From assembly GCA_021810565.1 (NCBI GenBank), contig JAJZIM010000002.1:18429-82428 (forward strand): a stretch of DNA of 64,000 bases, read 5' to 3'. Source of the DNA: Bacillota bacterium (lineage in GTDB: Bacteria; Bacillota; Sulfobacillia; JAJZIM01). The notes below the pieces were generated by a model. That model was not told the origin of the DNA. It was given only the letters and a program-made list of their open reading frames with translations, and made no database searches. Both the position numbers and the translations under genes were made by a program. Shown in pieces: positions 1,159 through 41,109 of the stretch (the stretch's first letter is position 1; the number at the start of each line of letters is the position of its first letter).

Positions 1159-1204
1159 CTCCCGCACCTTGAGCCCCCGCGGCCCCACCGCCTCGGGCGA
1201 GACG

Positions 1205-3993: not shown

Positions 3994-4115
3994 CCCTCCC
4001 GAGGAGGAGAATACGACCCGGCCCAGGCAAATCCTGCTCCCCCGGCGGCAGGAACCGTCTCCGCCCCCGTCGAAGAGGGCCTCAAGACGGACAATTACCC
4101 TGAGGCGGTGCCCGG

Positions 4116-6220: not shown

Positions 6221-6314
6221 GGGACAAACCTGCGGCCCCGCCCGGGGCGCCACGCGCTCATAGGTGATGGTGCCCCAATGCAGCCCCTTCTCGGCCCTGA
6301 CCACGCGCACCTCG

Positions 6315-7433: not shown

Positions 7434-7446
7434 GCGTGCTCCTCCT

Positions 7447-8136: not shown

Positions 8137-8834
8137 GAGGCGTCCTCCTTGCGCCGCACAAACTCCCGGATCGCCTCGGGATGCTCCCGGGTGAAGGGCC
8201 GCACCGGCCGGTCGTCCAGGATGGTGTCCGGGTTCACCCCGGCATAGCGATCCGGATCGCCCTCCAGCCGGGCATACTTCTCCCACCGCCGGAAGATGGC
8301 CCGGGGCGGCTTCACGTAGCCGTAGTGCACGAAAAAGATGCCCGCGTCCCGCACCCGCGGTCCCACCCCCACCGGATGTTCATGCACCGCCCCTTCCCAG
8401 TGCAAGGCGGCCGTGCGTCGGATCAGGACCAGGCGCCGGTACTGCTCATCGTGGTCGGCGGCGTTCTGCACGTGGCCGAAGTCCCGCATCAGATGGAAGA
8501 AATAGCTGTAGTAGGCGTCGGCGTCGGAGGCGACCAGCTGCGGGATCCGCCGGGCGGCGTCGGCATAGAACACCATGTCGGCGTCCATGGGCATGACCCA
8601 CCGACCCACGCTGGCCGCCAGGGCCAGGTTCCGCAGCGCCGCGTAGTTCTCGACCCGGGAGCGCAAGAGGCGCACCTTGGGAAAGGCCCGGGCGACGGCA
8701 TCGGTGCCGTCCGAGGAGTAGCCGTCCACCACCACCACCTCGTCCGCCGCCTCGTGCACCGACCGGAGGGAGTACGGCAGGTACTCCGCCTCGTCTTTCA
8801 CGATGTACAAGACACTCAAAGCCCGCTCGCGCAC
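8115..8834 (-). CDS. GT2-family glycosyltransferase
   Basis: 239 aa: MRERALSVLYIVKDEAEYLPYSLRSVHEAADEVVVVDGYSSDGTDAV. GT-A N-terminal DxD-region architecture. Confidence 0.7.
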   Translation of the reverse strand: MRERALSVLYIVKDEAEYLPYSLRSVHEAADEVVVVDGYSSDGTDAVARAFPKVRLLRSRVENYAALRNLALAASVGRWVMPMDADMVFYADAARRIPQLVASDADAYYSYFFHLMRDFGHVQNAADHDEQYRRLVLIRRTAALHWEGAVHEHPVGVGPRVRDAGIFFVHYGYVKPPRAIFRRWEKYARLEGDPDRYAGVNPDTILDDRPVRPFTREHPEAIREFVRRKEDASCGSGSS

Positions 8835-9865
8835 CTTGGACCTCCTCGTCTCGACAGATCTGCCGGTCCCACCCGCCGTCCCGCAGGGATCCGTACGTCG
8901 GGCGGCACCCGCGTGTTCGGCTCCACCGTGCTTCCCGCCCCCAGGGTCACCCGAGCACCCAGCATCGCCCGGGCGCCCACCCGGGCACCCTCACCCACCA
9001 CGCAGCCGTCGGCCAGCACGCAGCGCTCCAGCACCGCTCCCGCCTCCACCTGCACCCCGTCCCACAGCACGCATCCCTCCAGCCGGGCGCCGCGCTCCAC
9101 GCGGCAGCCCCGACCCAGCACCACCGGCGGCTGCAGTTGCGCCGTCGCCTCCACCCGGCTGTCCGCGCCCAGCAGGAGTCCGGGGCCAGGGGTCAGCATG
9201 TCCCCCTGGACCGCCAGATAATCCCGGACCTCCCCCACGTCCCGCCAGGCGCCCCGCAAGAGACACCCGCGGACGGACCCGGCCTCGCAAAGCCGCGGCA
9301 GGACTTCCCGCCCGAAATCCCGCCGCTGCCCCGGCGGCAGCCAGGACAGGGCCGCCGGCTCCAAAACGTAGATCCCCGCGCTGGCCAGGAAACCGGGGGC
9401 CACCCTGCCCGGCTTCTCCACGAACCGCTCCACCGTGGCGCCGCGGCAGCGGGCATACCCCAGCCGACCCGGATCCCGCCGGCGCAGCAGGGCCAGCGTG
9501 ACCAAGCCGCCCGCCTCCCGGTGGTGCCGCACCAGCCGCCGCAGGTCGAGCCGCAACCAAAGGTCCCCCATCAGCACCAACAGCGGCCGGCGGCTCCCCT
9601 CGACCACGGCCCGCACCGCCCCAGCGGTGCCCAGCTCCCGAGCCTCCCGCCGCACCGTCAGGCGCATCCCCGGGGGGAAGGCCTCCCTGAAGCCGTCCCG
9701 GGCCCCGGCAAGCAGCTCCACCCGGGGGAAGCCCTGCGCGCGCAACTGCTCCAGCAGGTGGGCCAAAAGCGGTCGATCCCCCACCGGCAGCATGGGTTTG
9801 GGCCGGGAGAGGGTCAGCGGCCACAGGCGCCGGCCCCGCCCCCCCGCCAAGATCAGCACGCGCAA
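8816..9865 (-). CDS. NDP-sugar pyrophosphorylase (nucleotidyltransferase domain plus C-terminal left-handed beta-helix; mannose-1-P guanylyltransferase / G1P-thymidylyltransferase-like)
   Basis: TTG start: MRVLILAGGRGRRLWPLTLSRPKPMLPVGDRPLL (the GXGXR NTP-transferase motif). The C-terminus is rich in hexapeptide-like repeats (VGEGARVGARAMLGARVTLGAGSTV). Confidence 0.8.
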   Translation of the reverse strand: MRVLILAGGRGRRLWPLTLSRPKPMLPVGDRPLLAHLLEQLRAQGFPRVELLAGARDGFREAFPPGMRLTVRREARELGTAGAVRAVVEGSRRPLLVLMGDLWLRLDLRRLVRHHREAGGLVTLALLRRRDPGRLGYARCRGATVERFVEKPGRVAPGFLASAGIYVLEPAALSWLPPGQRRDFGREVLPRLCEAGSVRGCLLRGAWRDVGEVRDYLAVQGDMLTPGPGLLLGADSRVEATAQLQPPVVLGRGCRVERGARLEGCVLWDGVQVEAGAVLERCVLADGCVVGEGARVGARAMLGARVTLGAGSTVEPNTRVPPDVRIPAGRRVGPADLSRRGGPRCASGL

Positions 9866-9993
9866 GCGTCAGCCCCCCTTGCCGTCTCCGGCGCTCGCAG
9901 GTTATGTATCATCCTCGGGGAAGGTGCCGTTCGTCGGGCCGCGGCGCAAGGAACCATCCGTTCCGTCCGCGGATATTATGTAACCGGGGTCCG

Positions 9994-11013
9994 TCAGTCC
10001 AAAGCGGCCCGGTACACGGCGCAGGTCTCCCGAGCCGTGCGCTCCCAGCTGAAGTCCCGGGCGCGGGCGCGGCCCCGCTCGGCCAACTCGCTGCGCCACC
10101 GGGGATCCTCCAGCGCCCGGACCATGGCCGCCGCCAACTGGACCGGGTCCGCCGGATCCACCGCCGCGACGGCATCCCCCCCCACCTCCCGCAGCACCTG
10201 GATCCGCGAGGCGATGACCGGCGTGCCCAAGCTCATGGCCTCCAGCACCGGCAGGCCGAACCCCTCCCCCCGGCTGGGATACAGCAGGGCGACGGCCTGG
10301 TCCATCAGGGCCGCCAGGGTCGCGGAAGTCAGATAGCCCGTGAGCACCAGCCGGGGATCACCGGCGAGGCCCGCCGCCTGAACTTGCTGCACCACCCGCC
10401 GCCGCGCGTCCCGCGGGCAGCACATCAATAGCCGGCAGGGCAGGGAGGGCGGCAACCGGCGCCACGCCTCCAGCACCCCGGAGAGGTTCTTGCGGGGAAA
10501 GGCGCCCGCCAGGTGCAGGAAGAAGGAGCCGTAAAGAGCGTACCTTGCGCGGACCTGATCCCGCTGGGCCGGATCGGGAGGCCGCAAGGTCGGCGCCAAG
10601 GGCACCACCGCTATGCGTTCGGCCGCCACCCCCGCTCGCTGCCGCAGCTCGTGAGCCGTGACCTGGGAAGGTGCCAGCACCCGTCGCGCCTGAGCCACGG
10701 CCCGACGCAGCGACTCTTTCAGCAGCCGCCGCACCCGAGGTGGATACTCCTCCGGAAGCTCCTCAAAGAGCAGGTCGTGGACGCTCACCACCAGGGGATG
10801 CGCCAGCCCCACCCGGGGCGAGAAGAAAAGCGGATGGTGCACCAGATCCACCCTCGTCGGCGGCCCGGCCAATTCGGAGCCCTTCCAAAGCACCACCCCG
10901 ACCCCCGTCGCCCGGTCCAAGGCTTCGGCCAAGCGCCGGGGGTATAACTGCAGGCCGGTGGCCTCCCCGCCCAGGGCCGCCAGGTCCAGCGCCACCCGCA
11001 GCGGCCTAGTCAT
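9994..11013 (-). CDS. glycosyltransferase GT4
   Basis: 339 aa: ...SRGEGFGLPVLEAMSLGTPVIASR... (GT4 EX7E region). Its start overlaps the stop of the upstream 654-aa ORF by 8 nt. Confidence 0.8.
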   Translation of the reverse strand: MTRPLRVALDLAALGGEATGLQLYPRRLAEALDRATGVGVVLWKGSELAGPPTRVDLVHHPLFFSPRVGLAHPLVVSVHDLLFEELPEEYPPRVRRLLKESLRRAVAQARRVLAPSQVTAHELRQRAGVAAERIAVVPLAPTLRPPDPAQRDQVRARYALYGSFFLHLAGAFPRKNLSGVLEAWRRLPPSLPCRLLMCCPRDARRRVVQQVQAAGLAGDPRLVLTGYLTSATLAALMDQAVALLYPSRGEGFGLPVLEAMSLGTPVIASRIQVLREVGGDAVAAVDPADPVQLAAAMVRALEDPRWRSELAERGRARARDFSWERTARETCAVYRAALD

Positions 11014-12967
11014 CCGGTCGGATGACCAGGTCCCACAGGCGATATTCCACCGCGAGGAGGCACTCCCAGCCCTCCGCAGCGGGACCGGTCTTTGCGGCCC
11101 GGGTCCGCAGGCAAACCCGCATACCCGGTCTGGCGGTCTCCACGGGCAGCCGAAGGTTGAAGGGCGCCTCGCGCCACCAGTGCAGCGCCTCCCAACGCAG
11201 CCGGCCCTGGACGAGGACGAAGCCGCGCCCAGCCGTGCCCCTGATCTCGCGCACCCTTGCCGTCAAGCCACCCTCCGCCGCCGGCGGCTGCCAACGCACC
11301 GGCACCGACAGCTCCCCCCGCTCCCGCAATCGCGCCGCCGTCCGCAGCCGGGTGGGCGCACCGGTTCCCTTGCTGCGAAGCCTAAGCGGCGTCTCCCGCA
11401 GGAGCAGCGCCTGGGCCTCCACCACCAGCCAGCCGCGTACTCCCCCCGGCACCGCCTCCCAGCGTTCCCCCACCAACCGCACTCGGCCCAGCGCCACCCC
11501 TCCCGGTCCCGGTGCCGGGCCAGGCAGGTGCACCTCCACTCGCCGCCTCGTCTCCCAGCGGCTCGCACGCCCCAGAGGGTCCGCCGCCGCGAGCTCCACC
11601 CGCAACCAGCCGCCTACCAGCACCCCGCCCGCCGTGACCCAGGCCCCGCGGGAGCGCAAAGTGCCCGAGGCGTTCAACCCCGTGGCGGCCGACACGGGTC
11701 GGCGCACGAATATCCGGCGCACCGTGCGCCGCCGGAGTCTGGCGATCAGGCGCGGCAGCAGGCAGCTGACGCCCGACCCCTGGGCTTCCTCGACCAATAG
11801 CGGCAGCAGCCGGGAGCGGCTGACCTCCAGCTGCACGGATACCACCAGCCGCACCGTGCTCCGAGGGACGCCCATGCCTTCGAGTTGCAAGCGGGGCCGG
11901 GCACGCATGCCCCTCTTGGCCTCGGGCACGCCCAGCACGGTTTCCCATCGCCGCGCCACGCTAAGCCGGCGCAAGACACCGTCGCCCTCCGCCAGCAACT
12001 GTCCGCCCACCCTGGCCTCCACCAGCACCCTGCCGGAAAGGACCCGTGCCAGGGCAGGCCCCGCCTCGGGGATGAAGCGCAACGCCCGCCACCCCGGCGG
12101 CAGCTCCAGAGGCAGTTCCAGGAGGGTGCTGGAGCTTTTCCGAGTGACCAACTGCTCCGCCGCCACCAGCGCCCGGGGCAGCCCGGAGCCGCGCCGCGTA
12201 CAGGCCACCTCCCGCCACCCGACGCTAAGCCGGCGCACCCGCACCGTCAGGGGGATCGCCAGCAACATCCACCAGCCGCCGGCGGCCAACCGCGCTTCGG
12301 GTTCCCCCGGCCGCGCTTCCCAGCGCACCTCGTCCCCCGGCACGCATCCCGCCAGGGGCAGGAAAACGTCCCAGGAGGTGCGCCCCTCGAACCGGTGCAT
12401 GGTGCCGTCGAAGGCCGTACAGGCCACCCGCAGCGCCAGAGTGCCCGCAAGGCGTATGCCACCGACCAGCGCCTCGCCCCGCACCGCCTCCGACCGGGCC
12501 CGCACCGTGTTCAGATCCCGGGCCCGGGCTTGCAGCAGCCGGCCCACGCTCACCAAGAGTTCGGTTCCGGTCTGCCCCGCCGGACAGGGCAGCCGGATGG
12601 TGACCCAACGCACCGCATCCCGCGGCTCGGAGGGAACGGACTCCAGCTCCAAGCGGGTGTGCAGGGTGACCCATGCGGGATCCGTATCCTCCAGCACGTA
12701 GGCCACGGCCCCGGAGCGCACCGTCAGCTCCCAGCCCTCCTCCGACAGGAAGGGACAGGGGATGCCGAACCGCATCTCCCCCGCGCAGCGTTCCACCGAA
12801 CCGTCGGTGGCCAGGTAGCGCATGGCCCAGCTCCACACGCCCTCCACCACCCCTGCCGCCTCGCCGTCGTGCCACCACCGCTCCACCCTGCCCAGCACCT
12901 CGCTCACGCCGGCCGCCGGCTTCGCCAACGCCACCCGGCACAGCAGCGGAAAACCGCGCCCCGGCAT
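11006..12967 (-). CDS. hypothetical protein, 654 aa, no family recognised by me
   Basis: ORF 11006..13705 trimmed to M247 (cat at 12965-12967), because the first 246 codons overlap the clearly real GT4 at 12979..13962 in another frame. Composition is protein-like (W/F/Y/C/D/E present, alternating hydrophobics). The opposite-strand ORF 11022..12701 is an S/T/R/P low-complexity artefact. Tightly coupled to both neighbours. Confidence 0.55.
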   Translation of the reverse strand: MPGRGFPLLCRVALAKPAAGVSEVLGRVERWWHDGEAAGVVEGVWSWAMRYLATDGSVERCAGEMRFGIPCPFLSEEGWELTVRSGAVAYVLEDTDPAWVTLHTRLELESVPSEPRDAVRWVTIRLPCPAGQTGTELLVSVGRLLQARARDLNTVRARSEAVRGEALVGGIRLAGTLALRVACTAFDGTMHRFEGRTSWDVFLPLAGCVPGDEVRWEARPGEPEARLAAGGWWMLLAIPLTVRVRRLSVGWREVACTRRGSGLPRALVAAEQLVTRKSSSTLLELPLELPPGWRALRFIPEAGPALARVLSGRVLVEARVGGQLLAEGDGVLRRLSVARRWETVLGVPEAKRGMRARPRLQLEGMGVPRSTVRLVVSVQLEVSRSRLLPLLVEEAQGSGVSCLLPRLIARLRRRTVRRIFVRRPVSAATGLNASGTLRSRGAWVTAGGVLVGGWLRVELAAADPLGRASRWETRRRVEVHLPGPAPGPGGVALGRVRLVGERWEAVPGGVRGWLVVEAQALLLRETPLRLRSKGTGAPTRLRTAARLRERGELSVPVRWQPPAAEGGLTARVREIRGTAGRGFVLVQGRLRWEALHWWREAPFNLRLPVETARPGMRVCLRTRAAKTGPAAEGWECLLAVEYRLWDLVIRPDD

Positions 12968-12978
12968 GCCCGGCTTCC

Positions 12979-13962
12979 TCAGCGCTCCAGGCACGAGCGA
13001 TACACCTCCAGGGTGCGCCGGGCGGTGAGGGACCACGAGAACCGCCGCAGGCGCCGCCCGGCCCGCCCGGTACGCGGCTCCCGCCAGGCCGCCAGCACCG
13101 CTTCCCGGATGGTCTCGGGCCGCCCCGGATCGCAGTAGCGGGCGTGAGGCCCCAGGTAGGCGGCGGCGGTCCCCCGATCGGTGCTCACCACGTTGCACCC
13201 GGCCACCGCCGCCTCCAGGCTGGCCAGGCCGGGCAGCTCGTACCAACTGGCCAGCGCATGCACCCGTGCTCCGACGAAGGCCGCCCCCAGCGCCGTCCCC
13301 CGGGCCGGGCCGCAAAAGCGCACCTGTTCCCCCGCGGCCGCCCGGCACCGCCGGAGGTACCAAGGATCGTTGACCGGCCCCAGGATCACCAGCGGCAGCC
13401 CGAGCGGCCGCAGCGCCTCGATGAGCGCCAGTTGATTTTTCTGGGGGGTGATGCGGCCCACGCACAGCACGTAGGCGCCCTCTCCCGACGCCGAGGCAGG
13501 CCGGCCCTCCTGGTCGCAGGCCAGGGGCACCACCGTGCTGGGTACCCCCTCGGAGCGCAATAGCGCCGCCTCCGCCTCCCCCGTGGTCAGCACGGCCCGG
13601 GCGTGGGACAGCACCTTGCGCCGCCAGGGCAGGTCCCGCCGCCAGCGCAGCACCTCCTCGCCCTCCGCCTGGGGGCAGCGGCACATATATTCCTCCAGGT
13701 CCCAATACATGGGGGTTAGCACGTAGGGGACGCCGTGCTCCGAGGCGTGCTGAGCCATCAGTCCGAGCTCATGGATGCGGGACAGGTTGAACAGGTGCAC
13801 CAAGTCGCAGCCCCTCAGGTCCGGCCGCAGCTCGGTGGACACCTGTGCCGCGACCCCCCGCTCCCGCAAGGCCGCCACGGTGCGGCGCACCAGGAGGGTG
13901 TCCCCGGCCGGCAGCGCCCACAGGTCGGGTCTCCCCTGCAGCAGCACACGCAAGGGCCTCAC
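12979..13962 (-). CDS. glycosyltransferase GT4
   Basis: 327 aa: MRPLRVLLQGRPDLW...ITPQKNQLALIEAL...WYELPGLASLEAAVAGCNVVSTDRG. Confidence 0.8.
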   Translation of the reverse strand: MRPLRVLLQGRPDLWALPAGDTLLVRRTVAALRERGVAAQVSTELRPDLRGCDLVHLFNLSRIHELGLMAQHASEHGVPYVLTPMYWDLEEYMCRCPQAEGEEVLRWRRDLPWRRKVLSHARAVLTTGEAEAALLRSEGVPSTVVPLACDQEGRPASASGEGAYVLCVGRITPQKNQLALIEALRPLGLPLVILGPVNDPWYLRRCRAAAGEQVRFCGPARGTALGAAFVGARVHALASWYELPGLASLEAAVAGCNVVSTDRGTAAAYLGPHARYCDPGRPETIREAVLAAWREPRTGRAGRRLRRFSWSLTARRTLEVYRSCLER

Positions 13963-14029
13963 CTCCCAACGAAAAACAGGTATCTGCGGGTGGATACCTG
14001 TTTCCCCTCCCCAGCGCAGGCGCTACGGC

Positions 14030-15637
14030 TCAAGGATCGCACACGTGGAGCTGTTGGAACTCGGTCACCGTGACGTCGCAATGGATGATGACCTTCTGGG
14101 TCAGCGCACCGGTGTCCGGAACGAACTCCCACAGCAGGTTCTCCACGTGGCAATGCTCGTGCTCCTGCATGCCTTCCTGGACCGGCACCTCCGGGTTCAG
14201 GGGGGTGACCTCCACCATCTCGCTGAAGTCCACATCCTCGAACTCGTGGTGCACCAGGCCGTCGGTCTTGCCCACGAAGTAGATCTGCTTGTGCAGCACG
14301 CCCTGGATGATCACCTTGCCCGCCTTGACGATGGAGACTACGTCCCGCAGGGTGGCGGTGATGTCGACGATCTTCAGGCCGGGAATGGTGATGGTACGCT
14401 CGATGAATTTCTGCTTGTGGCCGCGCCCGATCACCACCGGGGTCTTGATGAAATATCCGTAGGGGGACAGGCACACGGGGATCTCGCGGAACTCATCCAC
14501 CGTTACCTGCACCAGGATGATCACCTTCTGGATCAGCTGACCCGTGGCGGGATCGAACTCCCAGATCAGGTTCTCCACCACGGAGTGGTCCTGCTCGTGC
14601 ATCCCCTCCCGCACCGGCACCGCCGGGTCCAGGGGGGCAACCTCCACCATCTCGCTCCAGGGAACGTCCTCGGCCACGTGATGCACGATGCTGTCCGTGC
14701 CCACGTAGTAGATTTGCTTGTGCAAGGTGCCCTGGACGATGACCTTGCCGGTCTTGACGTGAGAGTGCACCCCGGTAAGCTTCGCCTCGATGTCCACGAT
14801 CTTGACCGCATCGGGGAGCAGGGTCTCGTGGCGCAGGAACTTCTGCTTCTGACCATGCCCGACCACCAGCTTGGCTTCGATGTACGGACCGAAGGGATCC
14901 TCCAGCACGCTGATCTCTTGGGTCTGGGTGACCTTGATGCACAGGTTCAGAATGACCTTCTGGATCAATTGCGCGGTGGCGGGATCATACTCCCAGATCA
15001 GGTTCTCCACGTAGGAGTGGTCCTGCTGGTTCATCCCCGGCTGCACCGGCACGGCGGGATCCACCGGGGGTATCTCCACCAACTCGCTCCACTCGATGTC
15101 CTCGGCCAGGTGGTGCTCCAGGTTGTCTGGTCCGACATAGTAGATCTGCTTGTGCAGGGTGCCCTGCACGATCACCTTGCCTTCCTTCACTATCGAGCGC
15201 ACGTGCACCAAGCTAGGGACGATGTCGACGATCTTCACCGCTTCCAGGCTGATGATCTCCTCGATGAACTTCTGCCTGCAGTTCTCTCCGACGACCACCT
15301 CGGCCTTGATGAGCACCTTCTCCGGCGTCTCCACGCTATCCATGGCTATCCCCCCTTCGCCTCCCGCTCCCGGAACGACCGCTTCCACCACCACGCTGGC
15401 ACCCCGGATCTCCTCCTCCTGCATCGGTTTGGCCGCCTCTTCCTCCCCCGGCTCCGCCTCCTGGCCAGGAGGCATCGCCGCGTCCGGGCCGATGAGCGAC
15501 CCCTGCACCTCGGGCGGCTCCTCGACTAGCAGGTGCTCCCGCGCCGCTGCCGCCTCCGCCGCCATCGCTCCCGCCAACCGGCCGCCCCCCAGGGCGCTCC
15601 GCGCCCGCGACACCCAATCCCTCAGCAACCTGTGCAC
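14030..15637 (-). CDS. tandem-repeat DUF3794/SPOCS-like protein (spore-coat-assembly-type domain), 3 x ~144-aa modules
   Basis: 535 aa. The motif KIVDI...GKVIVQGTLHKQIYYVG..HH.AEDV.WSEMVEV.PLDP.VPV.EGM...DH.VENLIWEFDP.TG.LIQKVI starts at aa 135, 279 and 422. The acidic N-terminal linker and the true start (several in-frame M) are uncertain. The SPOCS assignment is from memory of Pfam PF12673. Confidence 0.7.
   Translation of the reverse strand: MHRLLRDWVSRARSALGGGRLAGAMAAEAAAAREHLLVEEPPEVQGSLIGPDAAMPPGQEAEPGEEEAAKPMQEEEIRGASVVVEAVVPGAGGEGGIAMDSVETPEKVLIKAEVVVGENCRQKFIEEIISLEAVKIVDIVPSLVHVRSIVKEGKVIVQGTLHKQIYYVGPDNLEHHLAEDIEWSELVEIPPVDPAVPVQPGMNQQDHSYVENLIWEYDPATAQLIQKVILNLCIKVTQTQEISVLEDPFGPYIEAKLVVGHGQKQKFLRHETLLPDAVKIVDIEAKLTGVHSHVKTGKVIVQGTLHKQIYYVGTDSIVHHVAEDVPWSEMVEVAPLDPAVPVREGMHEQDHSVVENLIWEFDPATGQLIQKVIILVQVTVDEFREIPVCLSPYGYFIKTPVVIGRGHKQKFIERTITIPGLKIVDITATLRDVVSIVKAGKVIIQGVLHKQIYFVGKTDGLVHHEFEDVDFSEMVEVTPLNPEVPVQEGMQEHEHCHVENLLWEFVPDTGALTQKVIIHCDVTVTEFQQLHVCDP
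14033..15328 (-). repeat. three ~432-nt tandem direct repeats inside the SPOCS-like CDS
   Basis: Nucleotide-level repeats, e.g. ctgcttgtgcag(c/g)(a/g)(c/t)gccctg(g/c)a(t/c)gat(c/g)accttgcc at ~14283, ~14712 and ~15146 (spacing 429/434). Confidence 0.8.
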
Positions 15638-15805
15638 ACCTCCTGGCCCACACCGCTTCTCGCCCGCCCGCCACGGTTGCCGATACCACGATATGCCGGG
15701 CCACCGCTTATGTTACAGCGGCTGATTTTTCTCTTTCGGGAAACGACTGATCCCGTCATGCGACGGTTGCAGCCGGCCTCTCCCGCAGGCCGGACGCGGA
15801 GTGGG

Positions 15806-16861
15806 TCAGGGGGAGAGCACCACCTCCGTGACCACCTGCAAAGGCATCAGCCGCTCGGTGCCGTCTTCCACCACGTCCACCCACACCGTGCGACGCTCCA
15901 CCCGGACGATCCCCGGCCCCGTGACGTCGGTGGCCACCTCCACCGTCCGGCCGTCCTGACGGATGGCCACCCGGGACACCCGGATCCCCGGCCCGCGCAC
16001 GTCCTGCACCACCTGCACCACCTCGTCGAAAATGATGGCCACCACCTCGATCAGCAGCACCGCCTTCAGACGCAGCAGGCCCCGCACCGGCAGGAGTTCC
16101 GGGATCAAGAACTCCACCTTCACCGCCACCTCCACCGAGGCACCCGGCTGCAAAGCCGGCAGCGGCAGCGCGTGGGTGAAGGCGACATCCTCGACGGCCA
16201 GTCGCACCACGCCTTCTGTCGTCACGTAGTAGAGCTGCTGGTGCAGCACGCCGCTCACCACCACCGACCCGTTGATCTGGCGGTAGGTCACGTCTTGCAC
16301 CTCGGCCGTGACCCCCTTGATCTTGACGGCCACCAGCGGCAGCTCCCGCACCAGGAGGACCTGCGCCCGGGTCTCGAAGACCGCTCCCACCAGGATAGGC
16401 CGCTTCAACACGCAGATGAACTCCCGGATGTGCTCCACCAGCACCTGCCGGCTGGCCTCCCCCACCACGGTCCCGTCCGCGGCGAAGACCCGCGCCTGCA
16501 CCACCAGCACGATCTGCTGCAAGAGCCGCGCATGGTCCGTGCTGAGGCGCCAGATCAGGTATTCCACCTCGGCCCTGGCCACCACTCCCATGCCGGGGGC
16601 CGTCCCGGGCACCTCCAACGCGCAGCTGAAGGGCACCTCCTCCGCCTCGTGGCGGACGATGTTGTCGACCCCCACATAGAAGACCTGCTTTTGCACCATC
16701 CCCTGAATGATGACTTGGTTGGTGACCGGCTGCGCGGCGAGGTTTTGGACCTGAGCGGTCACCTCCTTGATCTTGCGGACCGGACAGGTGCCGGCCTGAG
16801 CGCGCTCCCCCGCCAGTTGCCCCGCCGTGCCGTTCAATCCCCCCTCCTCCCTTCCCTCCAT
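15806..16861 (-). CDS. DUF3794/SPOCS-like protein (2 modules), paralogous to 14030..15637
   Basis: 351 aa containing VIIQGMVQKQVFYVGVDNIVRHEAEEVPFS and VVVSGVLHQQLYYVTTEGVVRLAVEDVAF, the same module signature as the neighbouring gene. Confidence 0.65.
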   Translation of the reverse strand: MEGREEGGLNGTAGQLAGERAQAGTCPVRKIKEVTAQVQNLAAQPVTNQVIIQGMVQKQVFYVGVDNIVRHEAEEVPFSCALEVPGTAPGMGVVARAEVEYLIWRLSTDHARLLQQIVLVVQARVFAADGTVVGEASRQVLVEHIREFICVLKRPILVGAVFETRAQVLLVRELPLVAVKIKGVTAEVQDVTYRQINGSVVVSGVLHQQLYYVTTEGVVRLAVEDVAFTHALPLPALQPGASVEVAVKVEFLIPELLPVRGLLRLKAVLLIEVVAIIFDEVVQVVQDVRGPGIRVSRVAIRQDGRTVEVATDVTGPGIVRVERRTVWVDVVEDGTERLMPLQVVTEVVLSP

Positions 16862-16943
16862 GGTTATGTAAAAAGCGTCCCGATTGCCCCCGACAAAAAA
16901 AGGGCCGCCCCGGGGGGGGGGCGACCCTTTGGATCCGGTCTGG

Positions 16944-18521
16944 TCAGTTGCCGGAGGCCTGGCTCAACAGCAGCGCCTGCTCGTCGCCGATGTTCTTGAC
17001 CTCCTCGGTGGTTATACCGCTGGCGATGCCGGCGTAGAAGGCGATGAGGCTGCCCACCGCCACCACCACCATGTCCCAGGGATACGGCAGGAGCTTGATT
17101 CCGCCGAAGCTGCCCAGATAGGAGACCACGATCATGAAGATCAGGAAGGCGATCAGCCAAATCCCGGCCTTGGCGTGGGAAACCTCCAGTTTGTTCTTGA
17201 CGTGGAAGTAGTAGTACAAGGGCAGGCCCACGGCCATGGCGATGAGCACGTCGCCGGTGATGGGCCAGCCTGCCCAGTAGATGATCAGGCTGGCGATTAC
17301 GAAGGCCACCGGAGCGATGATGGACATTCCGGCCAGGTGCAGGGGGCGGCGGGCCTGGGGCGCGGTGCGCCGCAGGACCAGGGCGGCCACCGGCCCCACG
17401 ATGTAGGTGAAGACGACGGCGGTGGATACGATGCCCACCAGCTTGCTCCAGCCCGGGAAGGGCAAAAGGAGCAAGAGGCCGATGACGGTGCTGGTGATCA
17501 GGCCGACGTAGGGCACGCCGCGGGCGTTGAGGATGGCGAAAGAGGACGGCCAGTAGCCGTTCTTGGTCAAGGCCAGGGACACCCGCGGCGTGGAGGCGGT
17601 GTATACGATGCCGGTGCCGCCCGGGGACAGCACGGCGTCGGCCAAAAGCAGCGAGGCCAGCCAGCCCAGGCCCAAGGCGCCCGCCACATCGGCGAAGGGA
17701 GCGCTGAAGGACAGCTTGGCCCAGCCGTGGGCCAGCGCCGCAGGCTGCACCGCGCCTATGAAGGCCACCTGCAGCAACACGTACAGCACGATGCCGATGA
17801 TGATGGCGATGATCACCGCCCGGGGCACGTCTCGTTGCGGGTTCTTGGCCTCCCCGGCCATGTCTACCGCCTGGCGAAAGCCCAGGTAGGCGAAGACCAC
17901 CCCACCGGTGGCGATGGCGGTGAGGACGCCGGACGATCCGCTGGGAGCGAACCCGTGGCTGGAGAAGTTGCTGGCGTGGATCCCCACCGCGAACAGCACG
18001 ATCAGGGTCAAGGATGGCACCAGGAACTTCAGGATGGTGATCTTGGTGTTCACCGTGGCGAACAGTCGCACGCCGTAGAAATTGACGAGAAAGAAGACGA
18101 CCATCAACAGCGCCGACACCAGGATGCCGGTGGGCGTCAGGCTGCCCTTGGCGAACAAGCCGTGGAGCCAGTGGTTGGCGTACTGGGTCACCGCCTCGGC
18201 CTCGATGGGCGGCACGGTGCAGTAGCCGATCCAGGCGGCCCAGCCCATGAGGAAGCTGACCAGCGTGCCGTGGGAGTACTGGGGATAGCGCACCACGCCG
18301 CCGGCCTGGGGCAGCATGCCCCCCAACTCCGCATAGACCAAGCCGATGAGCATCACGGCGATGCCGCCGATGATCCACGAATAGATGGCGGCGGGTCCGG
18401 CCAGGTTGGCGGCCACCAGTGCCCCGAACAGCCAGCCGGAACCGATGATGGCGCCCAGAGAGGACATGGTCAAATCCAATAGGCCAAGCTCGCGTTTCAG
18501 ACCGCCCGATCCTGAGGTCAT
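16944..18521 (-). CDS. APC-family amino-acid/polyamine permease
   Basis: 525 aa, 12-TM pattern, SLGAIIGSGWLFG N-terminal consensus of APC transporters. Confidence 0.85.
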   Translation of the reverse strand: MTSGSGGLKRELGLLDLTMSSLGAIIGSGWLFGALVAANLAGPAAIYSWIIGGIAVMLIGLVYAELGGMLPQAGGVVRYPQYSHGTLVSFLMGWAAWIGYCTVPPIEAEAVTQYANHWLHGLFAKGSLTPTGILVSALLMVVFFLVNFYGVRLFATVNTKITILKFLVPSLTLIVLFAVGIHASNFSSHGFAPSGSSGVLTAIATGGVVFAYLGFRQAVDMAGEAKNPQRDVPRAVIIAIIIGIVLYVLLQVAFIGAVQPAALAHGWAKLSFSAPFADVAGALGLGWLASLLLADAVLSPGGTGIVYTASTPRVSLALTKNGYWPSSFAILNARGVPYVGLITSTVIGLLLLLPFPGWSKLVGIVSTAVVFTYIVGPVAALVLRRTAPQARRPLHLAGMSIIAPVAFVIASLIIYWAGWPITGDVLIAMAVGLPLYYYFHVKNKLEVSHAKAGIWLIAFLIFMIVVSYLGSFGGIKLLPYPWDMVVVAVGSLIAFYAGIASGITTEEVKNIGDEQALLLSQASGN

Positions 18522-18642
18522 ATGTATCCCTCCCGCAGATTATTGGCACCCCCCCCTCGTGCTTTCTGTCGGCCTCACCCCCTCTGCGCAAATTATGCTC
18601 GCTTGCGTTAAGATTTCTACGCCTCGCTCTATTCTCCTTTTT

Positions 18643-19014
18643 TCAGTCCGTTGTCGATCCGTCCCGCGGCGCGATGTCCGGCCGGTGCGGATCGTATTCC
18701 CTGGACAGGAGCACCGCCAGGACGCTGGCCTGCAGCGCCCACACCCGGTGCTCCTCCCCCGGGCGAACGATGAAATACCAGCCGGCCGCGATCTCCTCCC
18801 GGGCCAGCCGGCCGGTACGCCCGTCCCGCACCTCCAGGCGCACCCGACCGGACACCACGTAGAAAAGTTCCTCGGTGCGGGCATGGAGATGCCCGCCGCG
18901 GCAGGCGCCCGCCCTCAGGCGCAGGACGTTCAGCTGCCGCCAGCGGCCCTGGGCCACCTGCACCAGTTCCCCGCGCTCGTCCGCCCGCCGCTGCTGCGGC
19001 CGCCGCCTTCTCAT
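18643..19014 (-). CDS. small cupin-domain protein (possibly sugar ketoisomerase/epimerase-like given context)
   Basis: ORF trimmed to M28 (ATGA overlap with upstream epimerase stop). Cupin motif 1 is GGHLHARTEELFYVVSG (G-x-H-x-H-x3-E-x6-G). Confidence 0.6.
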   Translation of the reverse strand: MRRRRPQQRRADERGELVQVAQGRWRQLNVLRLRAGACRGGHLHARTEELFYVVSGRVRLEVRDGRTGRLAREEIAAGWYFIVRPGEEHRVWALQASVLAVLLSREYDPHRPDIAPRDGSTTD

Positions 19015-19973
19015 CGCAACTGCGCCGCCGGTCGGGTCCGCCAATGCTCCAGCACGTCGGCCAGGCTGCGCTCCCAGGGGATGGCCGGCACCCATCCCGT
19101 GGCTTCCCGCAGTTTCCCGGCGTCACCCCGGATGTCGGGCAGGTCCACCGCCCGCACCCGCCGCGCCTCCTGCTCCACCCGCACCGGAACCCGCGCCAGA
19201 CGGCGCAGGGACTCCAGCACCTCGGCCACCGATCGGCTGTGTCCCGTGGCCAAGTTGTATACCTCGCCCACCCGGCCACCGGTGGCCGCCAGGAGGTAGC
19301 CGCGCACCACGTCCCGCACGTCGCCGAGGTCGCGCCGCGGCGCGAGATTCCCCACCCGCAGCACCGGCGGGCCCAGGCCCCGCTCCGCCGCCGCCACCTG
19401 CCGGGCCAGGTCGGGTACCAGGTGGCGGCGGTCCTGGCCGGGGCCGGTGTAGCTGAAGCTGCGCACCACCACCACCCCCAAGCCCCAACGGCGGGCGTAG
19501 CTAAGCCCCAGCAGGCTCTGGCACAGCTTGCTGATCCCGTAGGGGGTGCACGGCCGCAGCCGGCTGTCCTCGGTGAGCGGCAGCTCCGCCCGGGGCGCGG
19601 GGCCATACTCCTCGCAGGACCCTATCAGGAGGACCCGGGCCTCGGGTGCCTGGCGCCGCACCGCTTCCAGCAGCCGGGCGGCACCGGTCGCGTTGGTCCG
19701 GAGGGTGGCCAGGGGGTCTTCCCAAGAGGCCGGCACCGAGGTCCTCCCCGCCAGATGGAAAACCACCCGCGGCGTCGCCTCGGCCACGATCTCCTCCCAT
19801 CCCTTGGCCGTGAGATCCGCCCGCCGCATTCTAACGCGGTCCCGAAAGGGAGTCACCCGGTCCAGGCTGCCGGCCGAGCGGGCCGTGCCCCACACCTCCC
19901 ATCCCTCACCCAGCAGCAACCGGGCCAGATGGCTGCCGGCGAATCCGTTGATGCCGGTGATCAGCGCCCGCAT
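19011..19973 (-). CDS. NAD-dependent epimerase/dehydratase family protein (GDP-4-keto-6-deoxy-D-mannose reductase Rmd-like), copy E1
   Basis: ORF 19011..20732 trimmed to M254 (cat at 19971-19973): MRALITGINGFAGSHLARLLLGEGWEVWG...YGISKL (Rossmann GxxGxxG plus catalytic YxxxK). Paralog of 25243..26214. Confidence 0.8.
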   Translation of the reverse strand: MRALITGINGFAGSHLARLLLGEGWEVWGTARSAGSLDRVTPFRDRVRMRRADLTAKGWEEIVAEATPRVVFHLAGRTSVPASWEDPLATLRTNATGAARLLEAVRRQAPEARVLLIGSCEEYGPAPRAELPLTEDSRLRPCTPYGISKLCQSLLGLSYARRWGLGVVVVRSFSYTGPGQDRRHLVPDLARQVAAAERGLGPPVLRVGNLAPRRDLGDVRDVVRGYLLAATGGRVGEVYNLATGHSRSVAEVLESLRRLARVPVRVEQEARRVRAVDLPDIRGDAGKLREATGWVPAIPWERSLADVLEHWRTRPAAQLR

Positions 19974-20692
19974 CCGCGCGTCCCCCGATTGCACTCGAAC
20001 AACTCGCCCTTGCGATCGTCCCAGCGCTCCCGCAGCAGCCGGTCGTGGTCCGCCATCAGCCGCTCCACGTTCTCCACGTAGCGGGCGCTGGTGGCGTGCG
20101 CATGGTGGCACACCGCCGCTTGATGCACCTCCAGCCGTAAGCCTTGGGCCTTGAGGCGCAGGCAGAAATCTGCCTCCTCGTTCCAGAAAGGACCAAAGGC
20201 CCAATCGTAGCCGCCGATCTCGGCGACCAGGTTGCGGAAGAGGAAGCAGTAGCCCACCAGCACGTCCACCCGCAGGCCCTCCCGCCGATCGGGAGACAGC
20301 TGCCAACTCTGCACGGCGTGCGCCCAGGCATTGTCGAAGCACACGCCCTCCACCCCCGTGCCCCCCACCCCGGGCTCGGCCAGGGGGGCCAGGAGCGCTT
20401 CCAGCCAGCCTTCCCCCACCTCGGTGTCGTTGTCCAAGGTGCAGATGAACTCCCCCCGGGCCTGGGCGAACCCGAAGTTGCGGGCGCACACCCCATAGTT
20501 GCGCTCCCGCGCCACCGCGTGCACCCGCGGGTCCCGCCTGGCCAGGCTTTGGAAATAGGCGGCGGTGCCGTCGGTGGAGCCGTTGTCCACCAGGATCAAC
20601 TCGTAGGCGGGTCGGGTGTGGGCGAGCACGCTCGCCACGCAGCGCCGACTGACCTCCCGGTTGTTGTGGGCCAAGACCACGATGGATACCAC
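19961..20692 (-). CDS. GT2-family glycosyltransferase (type B, copy 1)
   Basis: MVSIVVLAHNNREVSRRCVASVL...LILVDNGSTDGT...LDNDTEVGEGWLEALL. Paralog of 26290..27114. Confidence 0.8.
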   Translation of the reverse strand: MVSIVVLAHNNREVSRRCVASVLAHTRPAYELILVDNGSTDGTAAYFQSLARRDPRVHAVARERNYGVCARNFGFAQARGEFICTLDNDTEVGEGWLEALLAPLAEPGVGGTGVEGVCFDNAWAHAVQSWQLSPDRREGLRVDVLVGYCFLFRNLVAEIGGYDWAFGPFWNEEADFCLRLKAQGLRLEVHQAAVCHHAHATSARYVENVERLMADHDRLLRERWDDRKGELFECNRGTRGCGR

Positions 20693-20695
20693 CGT

Positions 20696-21742
20696 TCACG
20701 CCCCTCCCGCCGCGGCGATGCGGGCCAGCCAACGCCGCGCTGTCCGATGATAGGAGAAACCGCGGGCCCGGCGCCGCGCCTGCCGCGACAGCCGCGCCAG
20801 CCGTGGCGGGTCTGCCAGGAGGTCGGCGACCGCTCCAGCCATCCGCAAGGTGAAGTCACCCTCCCCCGGCCATCCGGGAAGCAGGATGCCGGTGGCCCCG
20901 TCGGCCACCGTGGTGGTGAGCGCCCCCAGGCGAGTGGCCACCGTGGGCGCCCCGGCCGCCTGGCACTCCAAGGCAGCCAGACAGAACAGCTCCGGCACGG
21001 TGCATGGATACAGGTGCATGGCGGCGGTCATCTGCTCCCGCACCAACCGGGAGCGGGAGACCTTGCCCAGATACTCCACTCCCGGCAGTCCGGCCAGCCG
21101 CCGCCGGTGCTCCTCGTCCCCCGGAGGGCGGCCCCACAGGGAGAAATCGCTGGTGACCACCAGGTGCGCCGCGGCGCAGCGCCGCTGGATCTCCTCCAGG
21201 ATCGGCCCCAGGTGCTCGGCCCCCCGGCCCGGCACCGAGCAGTAGAGCAGCTTCGCCGGATCCCGCCGCGGCCCGGCGCGGTAATCGGAGAGGTTCACCC
21301 CCAGGGGGATCTCCCACAAGAGCGCCGGGGACAACCCCGAGCGGCGCGCCAACTGGGCCGTGTGGTAGGGGCTCAGGGTGACCACCGCCCGCAGGTGGGG
21401 CAGCAGGTGCTCCCAGTCCCCCACCAACACGGCATCTTCCTCACAGGACCAAAACAGCTTGACCCGCGAGCGCACCCCGGGCAGGCACTCCACCGGGCCC
21501 CGCATCCCCACGAAGGCATCCCACCCCTCCCCCTTTCCGAGGCTGCCCCGGGGCCGGTAGCACACCCCCCGATGCACCTCGGGCCGGCCCACGCCGCAAA
21601 ACACCGTCACCGCCGCGTGCCGGGCCAGGTGCCGCACCAGCAAGATCAGGGCCGTCTCCGTGCCGCCCAATCCCCGGCCCTCCAGATCGGCGCCACGCCA
21701 GCCCCAATCCCCGGGGGCGTCATAGTAGAAGGCGATGCGCAC
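20696..21742 (-). CDS. glycosyltransferase GT4 (type G, copy 1)
   Basis: MRIAFYYDAPGDWGWRGADLEGRGLGGTETALILLVRHLA...ELFCLAALECQAAGAPTVATRLGALTTTVADGATGILL. Paralog of 24197..25246. Confidence 0.8.
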   Translation of the reverse strand: MRIAFYYDAPGDWGWRGADLEGRGLGGTETALILLVRHLARHAAVTVFCGVGRPEVHRGVCYRPRGSLGKGEGWDAFVGMRGPVECLPGVRSRVKLFWSCEEDAVLVGDWEHLLPHLRAVVTLSPYHTAQLARRSGLSPALLWEIPLGVNLSDYRAGPRRDPAKLLYCSVPGRGAEHLGPILEEIQRRCAAAHLVVTSDFSLWGRPPGDEEHRRRLAGLPGVEYLGKVSRSRLVREQMTAAMHLYPCTVPELFCLAALECQAAGAPTVATRLGALTTTVADGATGILLPGWPGEGDFTLRMAGAVADLLADPPRLARLSRQARRRARGFSYHRTARRWLARIAAAGGA

Positions 21743-21758
21743 CCCCGCACCCTCCTTT

Positions 21759-22457
21759 TCAGTACAGATTGGTTACCCGTGGCGCGTCCGACCCCCACCG
21801 CGCCACGTAGCGGCGGCGGTTGGCCGCCTCGCCGTCCAGACGCACCGCATAGCGGGTGGCGGCGGCACGGTGCCACACCACGCTGCCCTTGGTCACCAGC
21901 ACGGCGTAGCCGGCCGCCAGGAGGCGGTTGTTGTAGTCCCAATCCTCGTACTCGGCGTGGTTGACATAGCCCTCGTCGTGGGGACCCACCGCCTCGGCCG
22001 CCGCCCGGGGGATCACCCACGGGTTGCCGTTGCCGGCTTCCAGAAAAGCGCCCTGGGTCCGGACGAATTCCGCCACCTCCGCCTCGGTGTATTCCCGGTC
22101 CAACAGGTTCCAGGAGGACACCTTGCCCGCCCCGGGCCGGCGCTCCAGGACCGCCAGCAATCCCGACAGCCAACCCGGGTAGAAGACCATGTCGTTGTGG
22201 ATCCAACAAAGGCAATCCACGACCGGATCGGTCAGCAGATGGGAGCGCGCCCGGTTCTGAACCCAGGGCAGCGATCGGGGAGCACGGCCCGTCAGCACCT
22301 CCACCCCCTCTCGGCGCAAAAACTCCGGCGTCCCGTCCCGGGATCCGTTGTCCACCGCGATCAGGCGGTGCGGCGCGTCCACGGTACGTCGAAAGCTCTC
22401 CAGGCAGCGCCGGGTGAGCGGCAGGAAGTCGAAACAGGTGAGGAAGACGCCCACCAT
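21759..22457 (-). CDS. small GT2-family glycosyltransferase, paralog family A (copy 2)
   Basis: MVGVFLTCFDFLPLTRRCLESF...LIAVDNGSRDGT...WIHNDMVFYPGWLSGL...YEDWDYNNRLLAAG. Confidence 0.75.
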   Translation of the reverse strand: MVGVFLTCFDFLPLTRRCLESFRRTVDAPHRLIAVDNGSRDGTPEFLRREGVEVLTGRAPRSLPWVQNRARSHLLTDPVVDCLCWIHNDMVFYPGWLSGLLAVLERRPGAGKVSSWNLLDREYTEAEVAEFVRTQGAFLEAGNGNPWVIPRAAAEAVGPHDEGYVNHAEYEDWDYNNRLLAAGYAVLVTKGSVVWHRAAATRYAVRLDGEAANRRRYVARWGSDAPRVTNLY

Positions 22458-22460
22458 GGC

Positions 22461-23468
22461 TCACGCCACCAGCTCCAGATAGCGGCGGGCCACCTGGTCC
22501 CAGCAGTTGGCATCGATGAAGGCCTGCTGGCGGCGCTCCCGCTCGGGGTCCACCAAGCCGTGCTGCAGCCAGACGGCCAGCTCCCCGGGATCACGCAGCT
22601 TGACGAACACATCTGCCGGCAGGTCTTGGAACCAGGGTACCCCGTTGTTCACCAGCACCAGGCGGTGCGCGGCCACGGCCAGTTGCGCCGCGCTCGAGAC
22701 CACCTGGGCGTCCACCGGCGGATACCACAACACGGTGGCGTGGGCCGCCGCCAGCCGACCCACCAATTCGCGCTGGTCGAACCAATCGCGCAGCAGGATC
22801 AGGTCGGCGGCGTTGGGCAGGGTGCAGGAATACAGGGGATCGAAGGCCAGGGTGGTCCAGCCGATGCTCCGGGCCGCGCCGTAGATCAGCCGGTAATCCA
22901 CCTTTCCCATTCCCAGGGTGGCCACCAGGTCGGCGGGCCAGCCCTCCCGGTGCTGCACCTCCCGCCGGGGCACCTCGGGCAGCCGCTGCACCCCCTGGGG
23001 GATCACCGTAGCCCCCGGCAACCGACGGAGAAGGCTGGCGCCATGCACCACCCGAACGTCCGCCAACTCGGGCAGCCCCGAGGGGATGTACGAGTCGTGG
23101 AAGGTCACCACCCGCCGCAGCCCCCGGGCGGCGCAGCGAGCCAACAGCTCGGTCAGAAAAGCCCCCGGATAGATGGAGGCCTGGTACTCCACCAACAGGG
23201 CCCGGATCTCCCAGCCCATGATCTGGCGCCAGACCAGCTCAAGGTCGTAGCCCGCCCCCCGGGACCACGGCTGCACCTCGAAGCAGGCCACCGCTTCCGG
23301 TTCGGAGCGGGTCAGCCGTCCCCGGTGCTCGGGGCGGATGCGCCCGTCGGTCCAATTGCCGAAGATGGTCACCGCGTGTCCCTGCTCCCGCAGTTTGCCG
23401 GCCAACTCCACCGCGTTCTCGGCCACCGCGCACTTGATGCCGTGGGAGGACAGGATGCCGATGCGCAA
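22461..23468 (-). CDS. glycosyltransferase, GT-B-like (GT1/GT4 superfamily, divergent)
   Basis: 335 aa: MRIGILSSHGIKCAVAENAVELAGKLREQGHAVTIFG... Two Rossmann-like halves; weaker similarity, hence lower confidence. Confidence 0.55.
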   Translation of the reverse strand: MRIGILSSHGIKCAVAENAVELAGKLREQGHAVTIFGNWTDGRIRPEHRGRLTRSEPEAVACFEVQPWSRGAGYDLELVWRQIMGWEIRALLVEYQASIYPGAFLTELLARCAARGLRRVVTFHDSYIPSGLPELADVRVVHGASLLRRLPGATVIPQGVQRLPEVPRREVQHREGWPADLVATLGMGKVDYRLIYGAARSIGWTTLAFDPLYSCTLPNAADLILLRDWFDQRELVGRLAAAHATVLWYPPVDAQVVSSAAQLAVAAHRLVLVNNGVPWFQDLPADVFVKLRDPGELAVWLQHGLVDPERERRQQAFIDANCWDQVARRYLELVA

Positions 23469-23481
23469 GGGGGTCCCTCCT

Positions 23482-24192: not shown

Positions 24193-24196
24193 CGCA

Positions 24197-26214: not shown

Positions 26215-26289
26215 GGATATCTCCTCCGTCCCTTCGTTATGTCACCACATGCTATGCACCTGCCCTTCCGCCGGTCACCCTTGGTCGGC

Positions 26290-27836: not shown

Positions 27837-27949
27837 GGTTGAAACCCTCCTTCCCCTCCAGGATATGTTCCGGCCGCAGCAGCGTGACCCCCGGCGACCG
27901 GACAGCAAAAAAAGGCCGCCCCCGAGGGCGACCGGCAGGTCTAGGCCCG

Positions 27950-40405: not shown

Positions 40406-40493
40406 CGTCTTAGCGCGGCCGTTGGCGCTGGGCCGCCTTCCCTCCTCTCCCCCGGGCCGCCGGCCCCCACTGTTCCCTTGACGAGGAAAGGTC

Positions 40494-41021: not shown

Positions 41022-41109
41022 CTTGAACCTCCTCCCGCTCTCAAGATCTAAAGCCGGGGCGAGAGCCCCGCCCCCGCCCCGGCACCCGCTGGGAAAGTGT
41101 TCACGAGCT

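Follow-up and report, generated by a model that had tools for sequence, protein, structure and literature searches.

SPOCS-repeat proteins encoded beside a conserved GT4 glycosyltransferase gene as candidate spore-envelope scaffolds in Thermaerobacter

The stretch of DNA analysed here, 64,000 nucleotides of contig JAJZIM010000002.1 (assembly GCA_021810565.1, forward-strand positions 18,429 to 82,428; the window in what follows), belongs to a metagenome-assembled genome (MAG) of a heat-loving Thermaerobacter and harbours two adjacent genes, gene 1 and gene 2, whose products are built from repeated SPOCS (SpoVID-CotE-SipL) modules. They lie within a long, co-oriented array of glycosyltransferase (GT) genes, together with a GT4 gene and a third, strongly diverged SPOCS-repeat gene, X653. 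The domain family and the glycosylation of spore surfaces are both already known, and proteins of this kind are annotated only as DUF3794; the gene 1 product is identical to the NCBI entry 'DUF3794 domain-containing protein [Thermaerobacter sp.]', and its locus is present in four further assemblies. Taking all of the evidence discussed below together, we think it reasonably probable that gene 1 and gene 2 encode scaffold proteins of the spore envelope, made late in the mother cell, which work with the dedicated GT4 and the soluble GT array around it. The coordinates of the features are collected in Table 1.

Table 1. Features of the SPOCS genes, their cassette and the surrounding array, in window coordinates
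Feature	Position	Strand	Remark
Gene 1, LysM-less three-module SPOCS protein, 532 aa	14033..15628	(-)	stop 14030-14032
Gene 1, disordered acidic N-terminus	15332-15628	(-)	
Gene 1, module 1	14906-15331	(-)	
Gene 1, module 2	14474-14902	(-)	
Gene 1, module 3	14042-14470	(-)	
Gene 2, two-module SPOCS protein	15809..16837/16861	(-)	'SPOCS-A' cassette position
Gene 2, module 1	16484-16789	(-)	
Gene 2, module 2	16037-16375	(-)	
Gene 2, C-terminal beta tail	15809-16024	(-)	
X653, 653-aa Arg-rich protein	11009-12970	(-)	cassette 'X' position; diverged SPOCS repeats
Cassette GT4	12979-13953	(-)	Pfam GT4/GT1 domains; no transmembrane segment
Array: ~15 soluble GT2/GT4 with NTP-transferase, 4,6-dehydratase, epimerase, cupin	5216..27908	(-)	~23 kb, co-oriented, surrounds cassette
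SigmaK-type motif ACATAAGCGGTGGCCCGGCATATCGT, gene 1	15688..15713	(-)	60 nt upstream of TTG 15628, then ribosome-binding site
-10-like element CATAACCA, gene 2	16861..16868	(-)	directly followed by GGAGGGAAGGGAGGAGGGGGGA and TTG 16837; weak evidence
SigmaK-like motif, first array GT2	27885-27860	(-)	then GGAGG ribosome-binding site, TTG start
SigmaK-like motif, 4,6-dehydratase	26275-26249	(-)	then GGAGG ribosome-binding site, TTG start
SigmaK-like motifs, NTP-transferase, two tandem copies	9998-9973, 9925-9899	(-)	then GGAGG ribosome-binding site, TTG start
SigmaK-like motif, separate GT2	53943-53918	(-)	then GGAGG ribosome-binding site
Hairpin with T-run, terminator-like, after gene 1	13972..14003	(-)	sequence read
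Hairpin CCGGCCT-N7-AGGCCGG without T-run, between gene 2 and gene 1	15773..15793	(-)	sequence read
Hairpin with T-run, intrinsic-terminator-like, after permease gene	16895..16927	(-)	sequence read

The G+C content of the window is about 70%, which gives rise to many long spurious open reading frames (ORFs), and real frames were picked out by their third-position GC (GC3). Both of the minus-strand frames named in a preliminary description of this DNA exist and are of the coding type, with a GC3 of 0.88 for gene 1 (ORF 14030-15637) and 0.89 for gene 2 (ORF 15806-16861). Translation of gene 1 is likely to start at TTG 15628, with an AGGAGG ribosome-binding site (RBS) 10 nt upstream (15639-15644), in agreement with the NCBI call of 532 residues. 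Three full modules were recognised in the protein by a profile of the family module (residues 100-241, 243-385 and 387-529; 204-214 bits each), and Pfam family PF12673 (SipL/SPOCS, formerly DUF3794) is matched over three stretches at 83.5 bits (E=1.2e-23), where the curated gathering score is 23.6 bits. The DUF3794/SPOCS identity proposed in the preliminary description is thereby borne out, and so are the module signature that had been quoted for gene 1 and its acidic N-terminus, some 100 residues which are also predicted to be disordered. The structure predicted by AlphaFold2 (AF2) from a 59-sequence alignment is all-beta, with a predicted local distance difference test score (pLDDT) above 95 at residues 101-530, a predicted template modelling score of 0.71 despite the 100 disordered residues, and a seven-strand pattern repeated alike in all three modules; a structure search found no solved structure resembling this model. 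At E<=0.01 neither gene 1 nor gene 2 matched a LysM domain. The NCBIfam family CsxC_fam (NF045794) is hit by gene 1 at 35.2 bits, below its cut-off of 135 bits, and not by gene 2. Both proteins are poor in cysteine (1.1% in gene 1, 0.9% in gene 2; family median 0%).

At the DNA level the repeats of gene 1 form one array according to Tandem Repeats Finder (14083-15181, period 432 nt, 2.6 copies, 74% matches, score 1026). The preliminary description was thus correct about the number and the period of the modules, but not in calling them near-identical, as they share just 50-60% protein identity. Identity to the same-position modules of orthologues is higher (63-67%), which indicates that the triplication is old, and for the close clade the same comparison led us to reject both a recent tandem duplication and concerted evolution of the modules. 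In a distant clade of 416-residue proteins, modules are more similar within a protein (51-59%) than between the clades (33-47%), and some homogenisation or co-evolution of modules is possible there, judging from these similarities.

Gene 2 matches PF12673 over two stretches (72.9 bits, E=2.5e-20), and its two modules (residues 25-126 and 163-275) reach 92 and 69 bits with the family module profile. A product of 343 residues from TTG 16837 is more likely than one of 351 residues from ATG 16861, because the latter codon precedes the GGAGG run and overlaps the -10-like element CATAACCA. The AF2 model, of moderate confidence (pLDDT 68), again consists of beta strands throughout and shows two modules followed by a tail of four strands; this tail contains a duplicated DV.GPGI.V motif which is kept in the sole distant homologue, P0123. 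Word-based homologue searches with gene 2 returned almost nothing. Its position is taken in related loci L005, L006 and L007 by four-module SPOCS proteins of 29-32% identity, each half of which aligns to the entire gene 2, and two-module versions are present in the closest relatives.

Examination of the contexts of homologues revealed a conserved cassette, whose members are a multi-module SPOCS protein (SPOCS-A), a LysM-less three-module SPOCS protein, a GT4 and a large Pfam-poor protein, X. The sample comprised 77 loci from species-representative genomes, essentially all of them Bacillota, of which 71 have a clean three-module ORF; a GT4 orthologue was counted when it scored >200 bits and lay downstream on the same strand. 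Of 66 eligible loci, 50 (76%) have such a GT4 after the three-module gene, either adjacent to it or beyond a gap of ~2.2 kb filled by X, and a SPOCS protein with at least two modules stands directly upstream in 40/61. Across deep Bacillota lineages, 71 loci at species level share the three-module architecture and the gene order. The GT4 of our window has 37-48% full-length identity to the GT4s beside three-module genes elsewhere (L005, L006, L008, L009), as against 29%, over a partial alignment only, to another GT4 of the window. By these sequence relations it is a specific orthologue group that appears dedicated to its linkage with the three-module gene, and the functional tie between SPOCS proteins and GTs is much stronger than the preliminary description could have known. 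A sequence search of the PDB found no close characterised enzyme for it. Among the organisms carrying the cassette is a cultured sporeformer, Tepidanaerobacter acetatoxydans Re1 (TepRe1_0795 and neighbours), which sporulates and has sigE/F/G/K. Four contigs with this Bacillota-specific cassette come from MAGs labelled Betaproteobacteria, Bacteroidota and Patescibacteria (L015, L050, L070 and L078, all PRJNA950955), for which wrong binning or a wrong label is the probable cause. In L075 (Candidatus Frackibacter sp. WG13) the family has expanded locally: six SPOCS-positive ORFs occupy 13 kb (793-13103), and sigmaK-like motifs precede five of the six.

The X position of the cassette is filled here by X653, a near-orphan without any Pfam match, for which direct and word-based searches return almost nothing and the SPOCS module hidden Markov model gives 0.6 bits, which is not significant. 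Its homology to SPOCS proteins was established transitively. The only relative found in a library-wide search is P0124 (E=3.4e-8), and both P0124 and the positional equivalent of X653 in L010 are PF12673 proteins (142 and 129 bits). Against a SPOCS-A profile X653 itself scores 9.5 bits, where the maximum for shuffled sequences is 3.7 and X proteins from other loci reach 44-78 bits, and its top 40 matches among 3323 ORFs are all SPOCS-positive. On this basis we regard X653 as a third, hyper-diverged SPOCS-repeat gene. The 899-residue ORF listed mechanically at 11006-13705 consists of X653 and a spurious extension through the GT4 gene.

One could suppose that a DUF3794 gene was duplicated in one lineage and came to lie in a sugar locus by chance, so that neither the repeats nor their position would have any significance, and the near absence of homologues of gene 2 and X653 from direct searches would be in line with this. 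Such an origin is contradicted by the synteny tally, with the same architecture and gene order in 71 species-level loci, and by the age of the triplication that is read from the closer identity of orthologous than of paralogous modules; identities of 34-64% between related loci also exclude that these are assembly duplicates of one organism. We therefore attach almost no probability to a chance arrangement.

The array that surrounds the cassette comes after the cell-shape genes mreB-mreC-minC-minD-rodA. None of its enzymes has a transmembrane (TM) segment, and a survey of Pfam domains found no flippase, polymerase, priming transferase, ABC exporter or oligosaccharyltransferase in it, from which it follows that the glycan would be built on a cytoplasmic acceptor. 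The description of the SPOCS genes as embedded in a GT array holds in so far as GTs and sugar-nucleotide enzymes span 5216-27908, but an amino-acid permease, a cupin and an epimerase are also found inside. Given a cytoplasmic acceptor, the SPOCS proteins may themselves be glycoproteins, with the GT4 directly O-glycosylating gene 1, gene 2 or X653 rather than these being a mere scaffold for another acceptor. The tight and conserved adjacency of one GT4 orthogroup to the three-module gene speaks for this, as do the cytoplasmic location of all the enzymes and the precedent of SgtA and BclA3 (PMC7157674). Nothing in the sequences marks the proteins as substrates, however: the Ser/Thr-rich stretches that had been proposed as places to look for glycosylation sites are not found in gene 1 or gene 2, and neither are collagen-like or other recognisable acceptor tracts. 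In addition, in 69/94 family members nothing extends beyond the folded modules, and the GT4 lacks a close characterised relative. We regard direct glycosylation of the SPOCS proteins as a serious but doubtful possibility.

Further indications of the cellular side on which these proteins act come from the 94 three-module relatives. Apart from the 69 in which no N-terminal extension precedes the folded modules, 19 carry an N-terminal hydrophobic or TM helix (for example P0010, P0012, P0019, P0022, P0072 and P0104), followed by a low-complexity linker of 100-380 residues. In all 15 of the TM-anchored relatives that were inspected, 0-1 K/R precede the helix and 2-6 follow it (N-out/C-in), the pattern of a reverse signal anchor, so that the SPOCS modules would stay in the cytoplasm. 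Modules in the cytoplasm would be as expected if assembly took place on the forespore surface that faces the mother cell, and their predicted topology speaks against secretion or an S-layer role. S-layer glycosylation loci are typically arrays of GT genes beside repeat-protein genes, and the resemblance of the present locus to them, together with its position after the cell-shape genes, could be taken to mean that the cassette and array build a layer of the vegetative envelope, such as an S-layer-like glycoprotein or a sheath, instead of a spore layer. Yet gene 1, gene 2 and X653 have neither a signal peptide nor an SLH domain, the anchored relatives keep their modules inside the cell, and the array, whose enzymes are all soluble, is without the flippase, ABC exporter, priming GT and oligosaccharyltransferase. 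SPOCS proteins are also part of sporulation-specific networks, the family being tied to sporulating Bacillota (PMC11513918), and promoter motifs of the sigmaK type are present at the locus. In our view the chance of a vegetative layer is slim.

The sporulating lineage that a coat role implies is indeed what was found. The genus Thermaerobacter forms spores, and T. marianensis and T. composti have been so described (PMC3035304; PMC11008173). The window itself encodes LonB (58510-60591 (-); TIGR02902, 844 bits against an NCBI curated cut-off of 723) and SpoVB (50345-51850 (+); TIGR02900, 395 bits against 372). The neighbours of spoVB are a GNAT gene (51889-52488) and a GT2 gene (53080-53913). 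Other genes of the window include clpX, lonA, valS, folC and maf, as well as a chaperone cluster in one orientation, dnaK - hsp20 - grpE - dnaJ - clpB (36951-43873 (-)). Between maf and clpB lies an ORF of 609 residues (34861-36687 (-)) with a Cas12f1-like TNB domain, which points to a TnpB-like transposon-associated nuclease.

With regard to the timing of expression, sigmaK promoters are characterised by AC at -35 and by a CATA -10 element that is common to sigmaE, a consensus conserved from B. subtilis to C. difficile (PMC3789822). We scanned for the sigmaK-type pattern AC-N16/17-CATAnnnT. A CATATC upstream of gene 1 had been noted as loosely like a sigmaE or sigmaK -10; it belongs to a complete sigmaK-type match, AC-N16-CATATCGT, which recurs at sugar and GT genes, whereas no sigmaE-type motif was matched anywhere in the window and the -35 of gene 1 is AC, not ATA. 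The window contains seven such motifs where 2.8 +/- 1.7 are expected, all on the coding strand, and five sites lie 30-70 nt upstream of starts, namely those of gene 1, the first array GT2, the dehydratase, the NTP-transferase (with two in tandem) and the GT2 at 53913. None occurs at the housekeeping genes of the window. This distribution suggests that the whole glycan array may be a late mother-cell regulon. At gene 2 the CATAACC core of the -10-like element is identical to that of the sites at 52785 and 9925. In the related loci (1.19 Mb), 52 matches stand in promoter position, compared with 2-24 for permuted cores, and ACA(T/C)A...CATAT is found upstream of orthologues of the close clade (L005, L017, L035, L074, L084, L086). 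The 416-residue clade has a conserved block of its own, A(A/G)G(C/G)GAGGTG(T/C)T, ~65-75 nt upstream of the three-module start (L008, L009, L039, L043, L047, L048, L051, L054); it is neither sigmaK- nor sigmaE-like and could be the RBS of a leader peptide or a regulatory site.

The absence of sigmaE-type motifs bears upon whether gene 1 is simply an adaptor of the basement layer like SipL or SpoVID, made early under sigmaE and bridging SpoIVA to the coat, in which case its position among GTs would be meaningless. The three-module architecture is the same as that of SipL, and sipL genes do lie near the cassette in several genomes. In L006, L013, L016 and L021, however, the true SipL, with three SPOCS modules and LysM, is a separate gene a few kb from the cassette, which identifies gene 1 as a paralogue of SipL and not SipL itself. 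In L020-L027 and L032 (~11.8-15.1 kb, locus coordinates) the cassette has no GT4 and is followed by SipL (~549 residues) and a LysM-less three-module paralogue (~472 residues), so SPOCS genes cluster around sipL. The earlier label 'SpoVID/SipL-type' does not apply in its strict sense: gene 1 lacks LysM, the SpoIVA-binding part common to SipL and SpoVID, and several genomes with the cassette also encode a true SipL orthologue. Considering also the AC rather than ATA at -35 and the conservation of the GT4 linkage in 76% of loci, we find the adaptor role improbable.

Several observations weigh against our preferred reading of gene 1 and gene 2 as late mother-cell scaffolds working with the GTs. 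One is the lack of acceptor tracts described above, and another is the permease gene which, next to gene 2, interrupts the array. Gene 2 has only a -10-like element and no AC at -35. The strict sigmaK motif is found upstream of just 7/68 orthologues, the motif is short, and in the related loci no enrichment of it before SPOCS genes is seen when neighbouring genes serve as the reference (p=0.15), and for this reason we treat it as supportive, not decisive. Finally, hairpins or terminator-like structures bracket both genes, so that each looks monocistronic, and motif similarity is therefore all that speaks for co-regulation with the GTs. Gene 2 would be shielded from transcription coming from upstream by the terminator-like hairpin that follows the permease gene; the stem of this hairpin includes ten consecutive C (16911-16920), which may be an assembly error or a slippage-prone site.

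How might these proteins function together? CsxA and CsxC form trimers, or 'tripods', that build exosporium and parasporal layers, SipL has three tandem modules with pseudo-threefold symmetry, and cysteine-poor members of the SPOCS (SpoVID-CotE-SipL) superfamily are morphogenetic (bioRxiv 10.64898/2026.09.03.749163). By analogy, gene 1 and gene 2 would be cysteine-poor SPOCS-repeat proteins of the spore coat or of an exosporium-like layer of Thermaerobacter, expressed by the mother cell from sigmaK-type promoters at a late stage of sporulation. A single chain of gene 1 with its three modules would be expected to form a pseudo-threefold tripod, as SipL does, with the two-module gene 2 and the diverged X653 as possible partner subunits; on our analysis this tripod is the most likely form of gene 1, which together with gene 2 and X653 would most likely make up a layer of the spore envelope. 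The three SPOCS genes and the dedicated GT4 would then represent an ancient four-gene cassette, placed here inside a 23-kb array of soluble GTs. We infer that the SPOCS proteins may self-assemble into a lattice on the side of the developing spore that faces the mother cell, and that the GT4 and other cytoplasmic GTs would use this layer as a platform, and probably also as the acceptor, for building a glycan of the spore surface. This role as platform and probable acceptor is proposed because of the fixed pairing with the GT4, the soluble GT array around it and the common promoter type, and there are precedents both for sigmaK-driven GTs, in the crust of B. subtilis (PMC10502511), and for a GT working with a spore-surface protein, in SgtA-BclA3 of C. 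difficile (PMC7157674).

A bolder version, which we offer as tentative and rather unlikely, is that the cassette is an ancient and so far undescribed 'glyco-lattice' module of the spore surface, in which the GT4 would start a glycan directly on the SPOCS lattice. It would be a counterpart, on the clostridial side, of the crust, and perhaps the ancestral outer layer. The lineages covered are deep-branching Bacillota, namely Thermaerobacter, Symbiobacterium, Hydrogenispora, Halanaerobiales and Thermoanaerobacterales. To our knowledge, almost nothing is known of spore outer layers beyond Bacillus and a few Clostridia, and we know of no protein that has been identified with certainty as the anchor of a spore-surface glycan, even in B. 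subtilis. A SPOCS scaffold paired with a dedicated GT, widely conserved and carried by at least one sporeformer that can be cultivated and has a sequenced genome (T. acetatoxydans Re1), would be a concrete and testable candidate for how glycan is attached to the spore. It would also extend the emerging idea that SPOCS tripods are a common building block of spore envelopes, and the case of X653 illustrates that apparent orphans in such loci can be hyper-diverged SPOCS repeats. We found no mention of a SPOCS-SPOCS-SPOCS-GT4 cassette in the SPOCS and Csx papers that we examined, which did not include Delerue et al. 2022, who are said to have defined SPOCS.

Set beside known systems, gene 1 is most readily compared with SipL (C. 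difficile CD3567) and the N-terminal region of SpoVID, which are likewise PF12673 proteins, poor in cysteine and confined to sporulating Bacillota. SipL, which is predicted to be a pseudo-threefold tripod, shares with it the three tandem SPOCS modules per chain; unlike SipL, gene 1 has no C-terminal LysM, has a sigmaK-type instead of a sigmaE-type -35, and is linked to a dedicated GT4. CotE, an outer-coat morphogenetic protein of B. subtilis, is also assigned to the SPOCS superfamily and is a cysteine-poor trimeric tripod, but it differs from gene 1 in being a single-module chain that trimerises and in having no known GT linkage, and no match to the CotE Pfam family was obtained here. CsxA and CsxC, of the basal layer of the exosporium and the parasporal layers of C. 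sporogenes, have the SPOCS fold in common with gene 1, and their threefold tripods self-assemble into lattices. In contrast to gene 1, they are single-module chains that trimerise and are rich in cysteine (14-24 Cys); the likeness to CsxC is confined to a weak sequence match (~35 bits against the cut-off of 135), and no GT linkage is described for them in the CsxA/CsxC literature that we examined, unlike the cassette. The crust of B. subtilis (CotX/Y/Z and CgeA, with SpsA-L, CotSA, CgeB/D, Yfn and Ytc GTs) and BclA3-SgtA of C. difficile offer a parallel of a different kind, in which structural proteins are made late under sigmaK together with soluble GTs and sugar-nucleotide enzymes. Their structural proteins, the Cys-rich CotY/Z and the collagen-like BclA, are unrelated to SPOCS repeats. 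In our case function has to be inferred, and the pairing of protein and GT4 is a fixed and widely conserved cassette. In those systems the glycan is made in the cytoplasm of the mother cell without export machinery, and it is in this way that we propose the SPOCS-associated GTs would act in Thermaerobacter.

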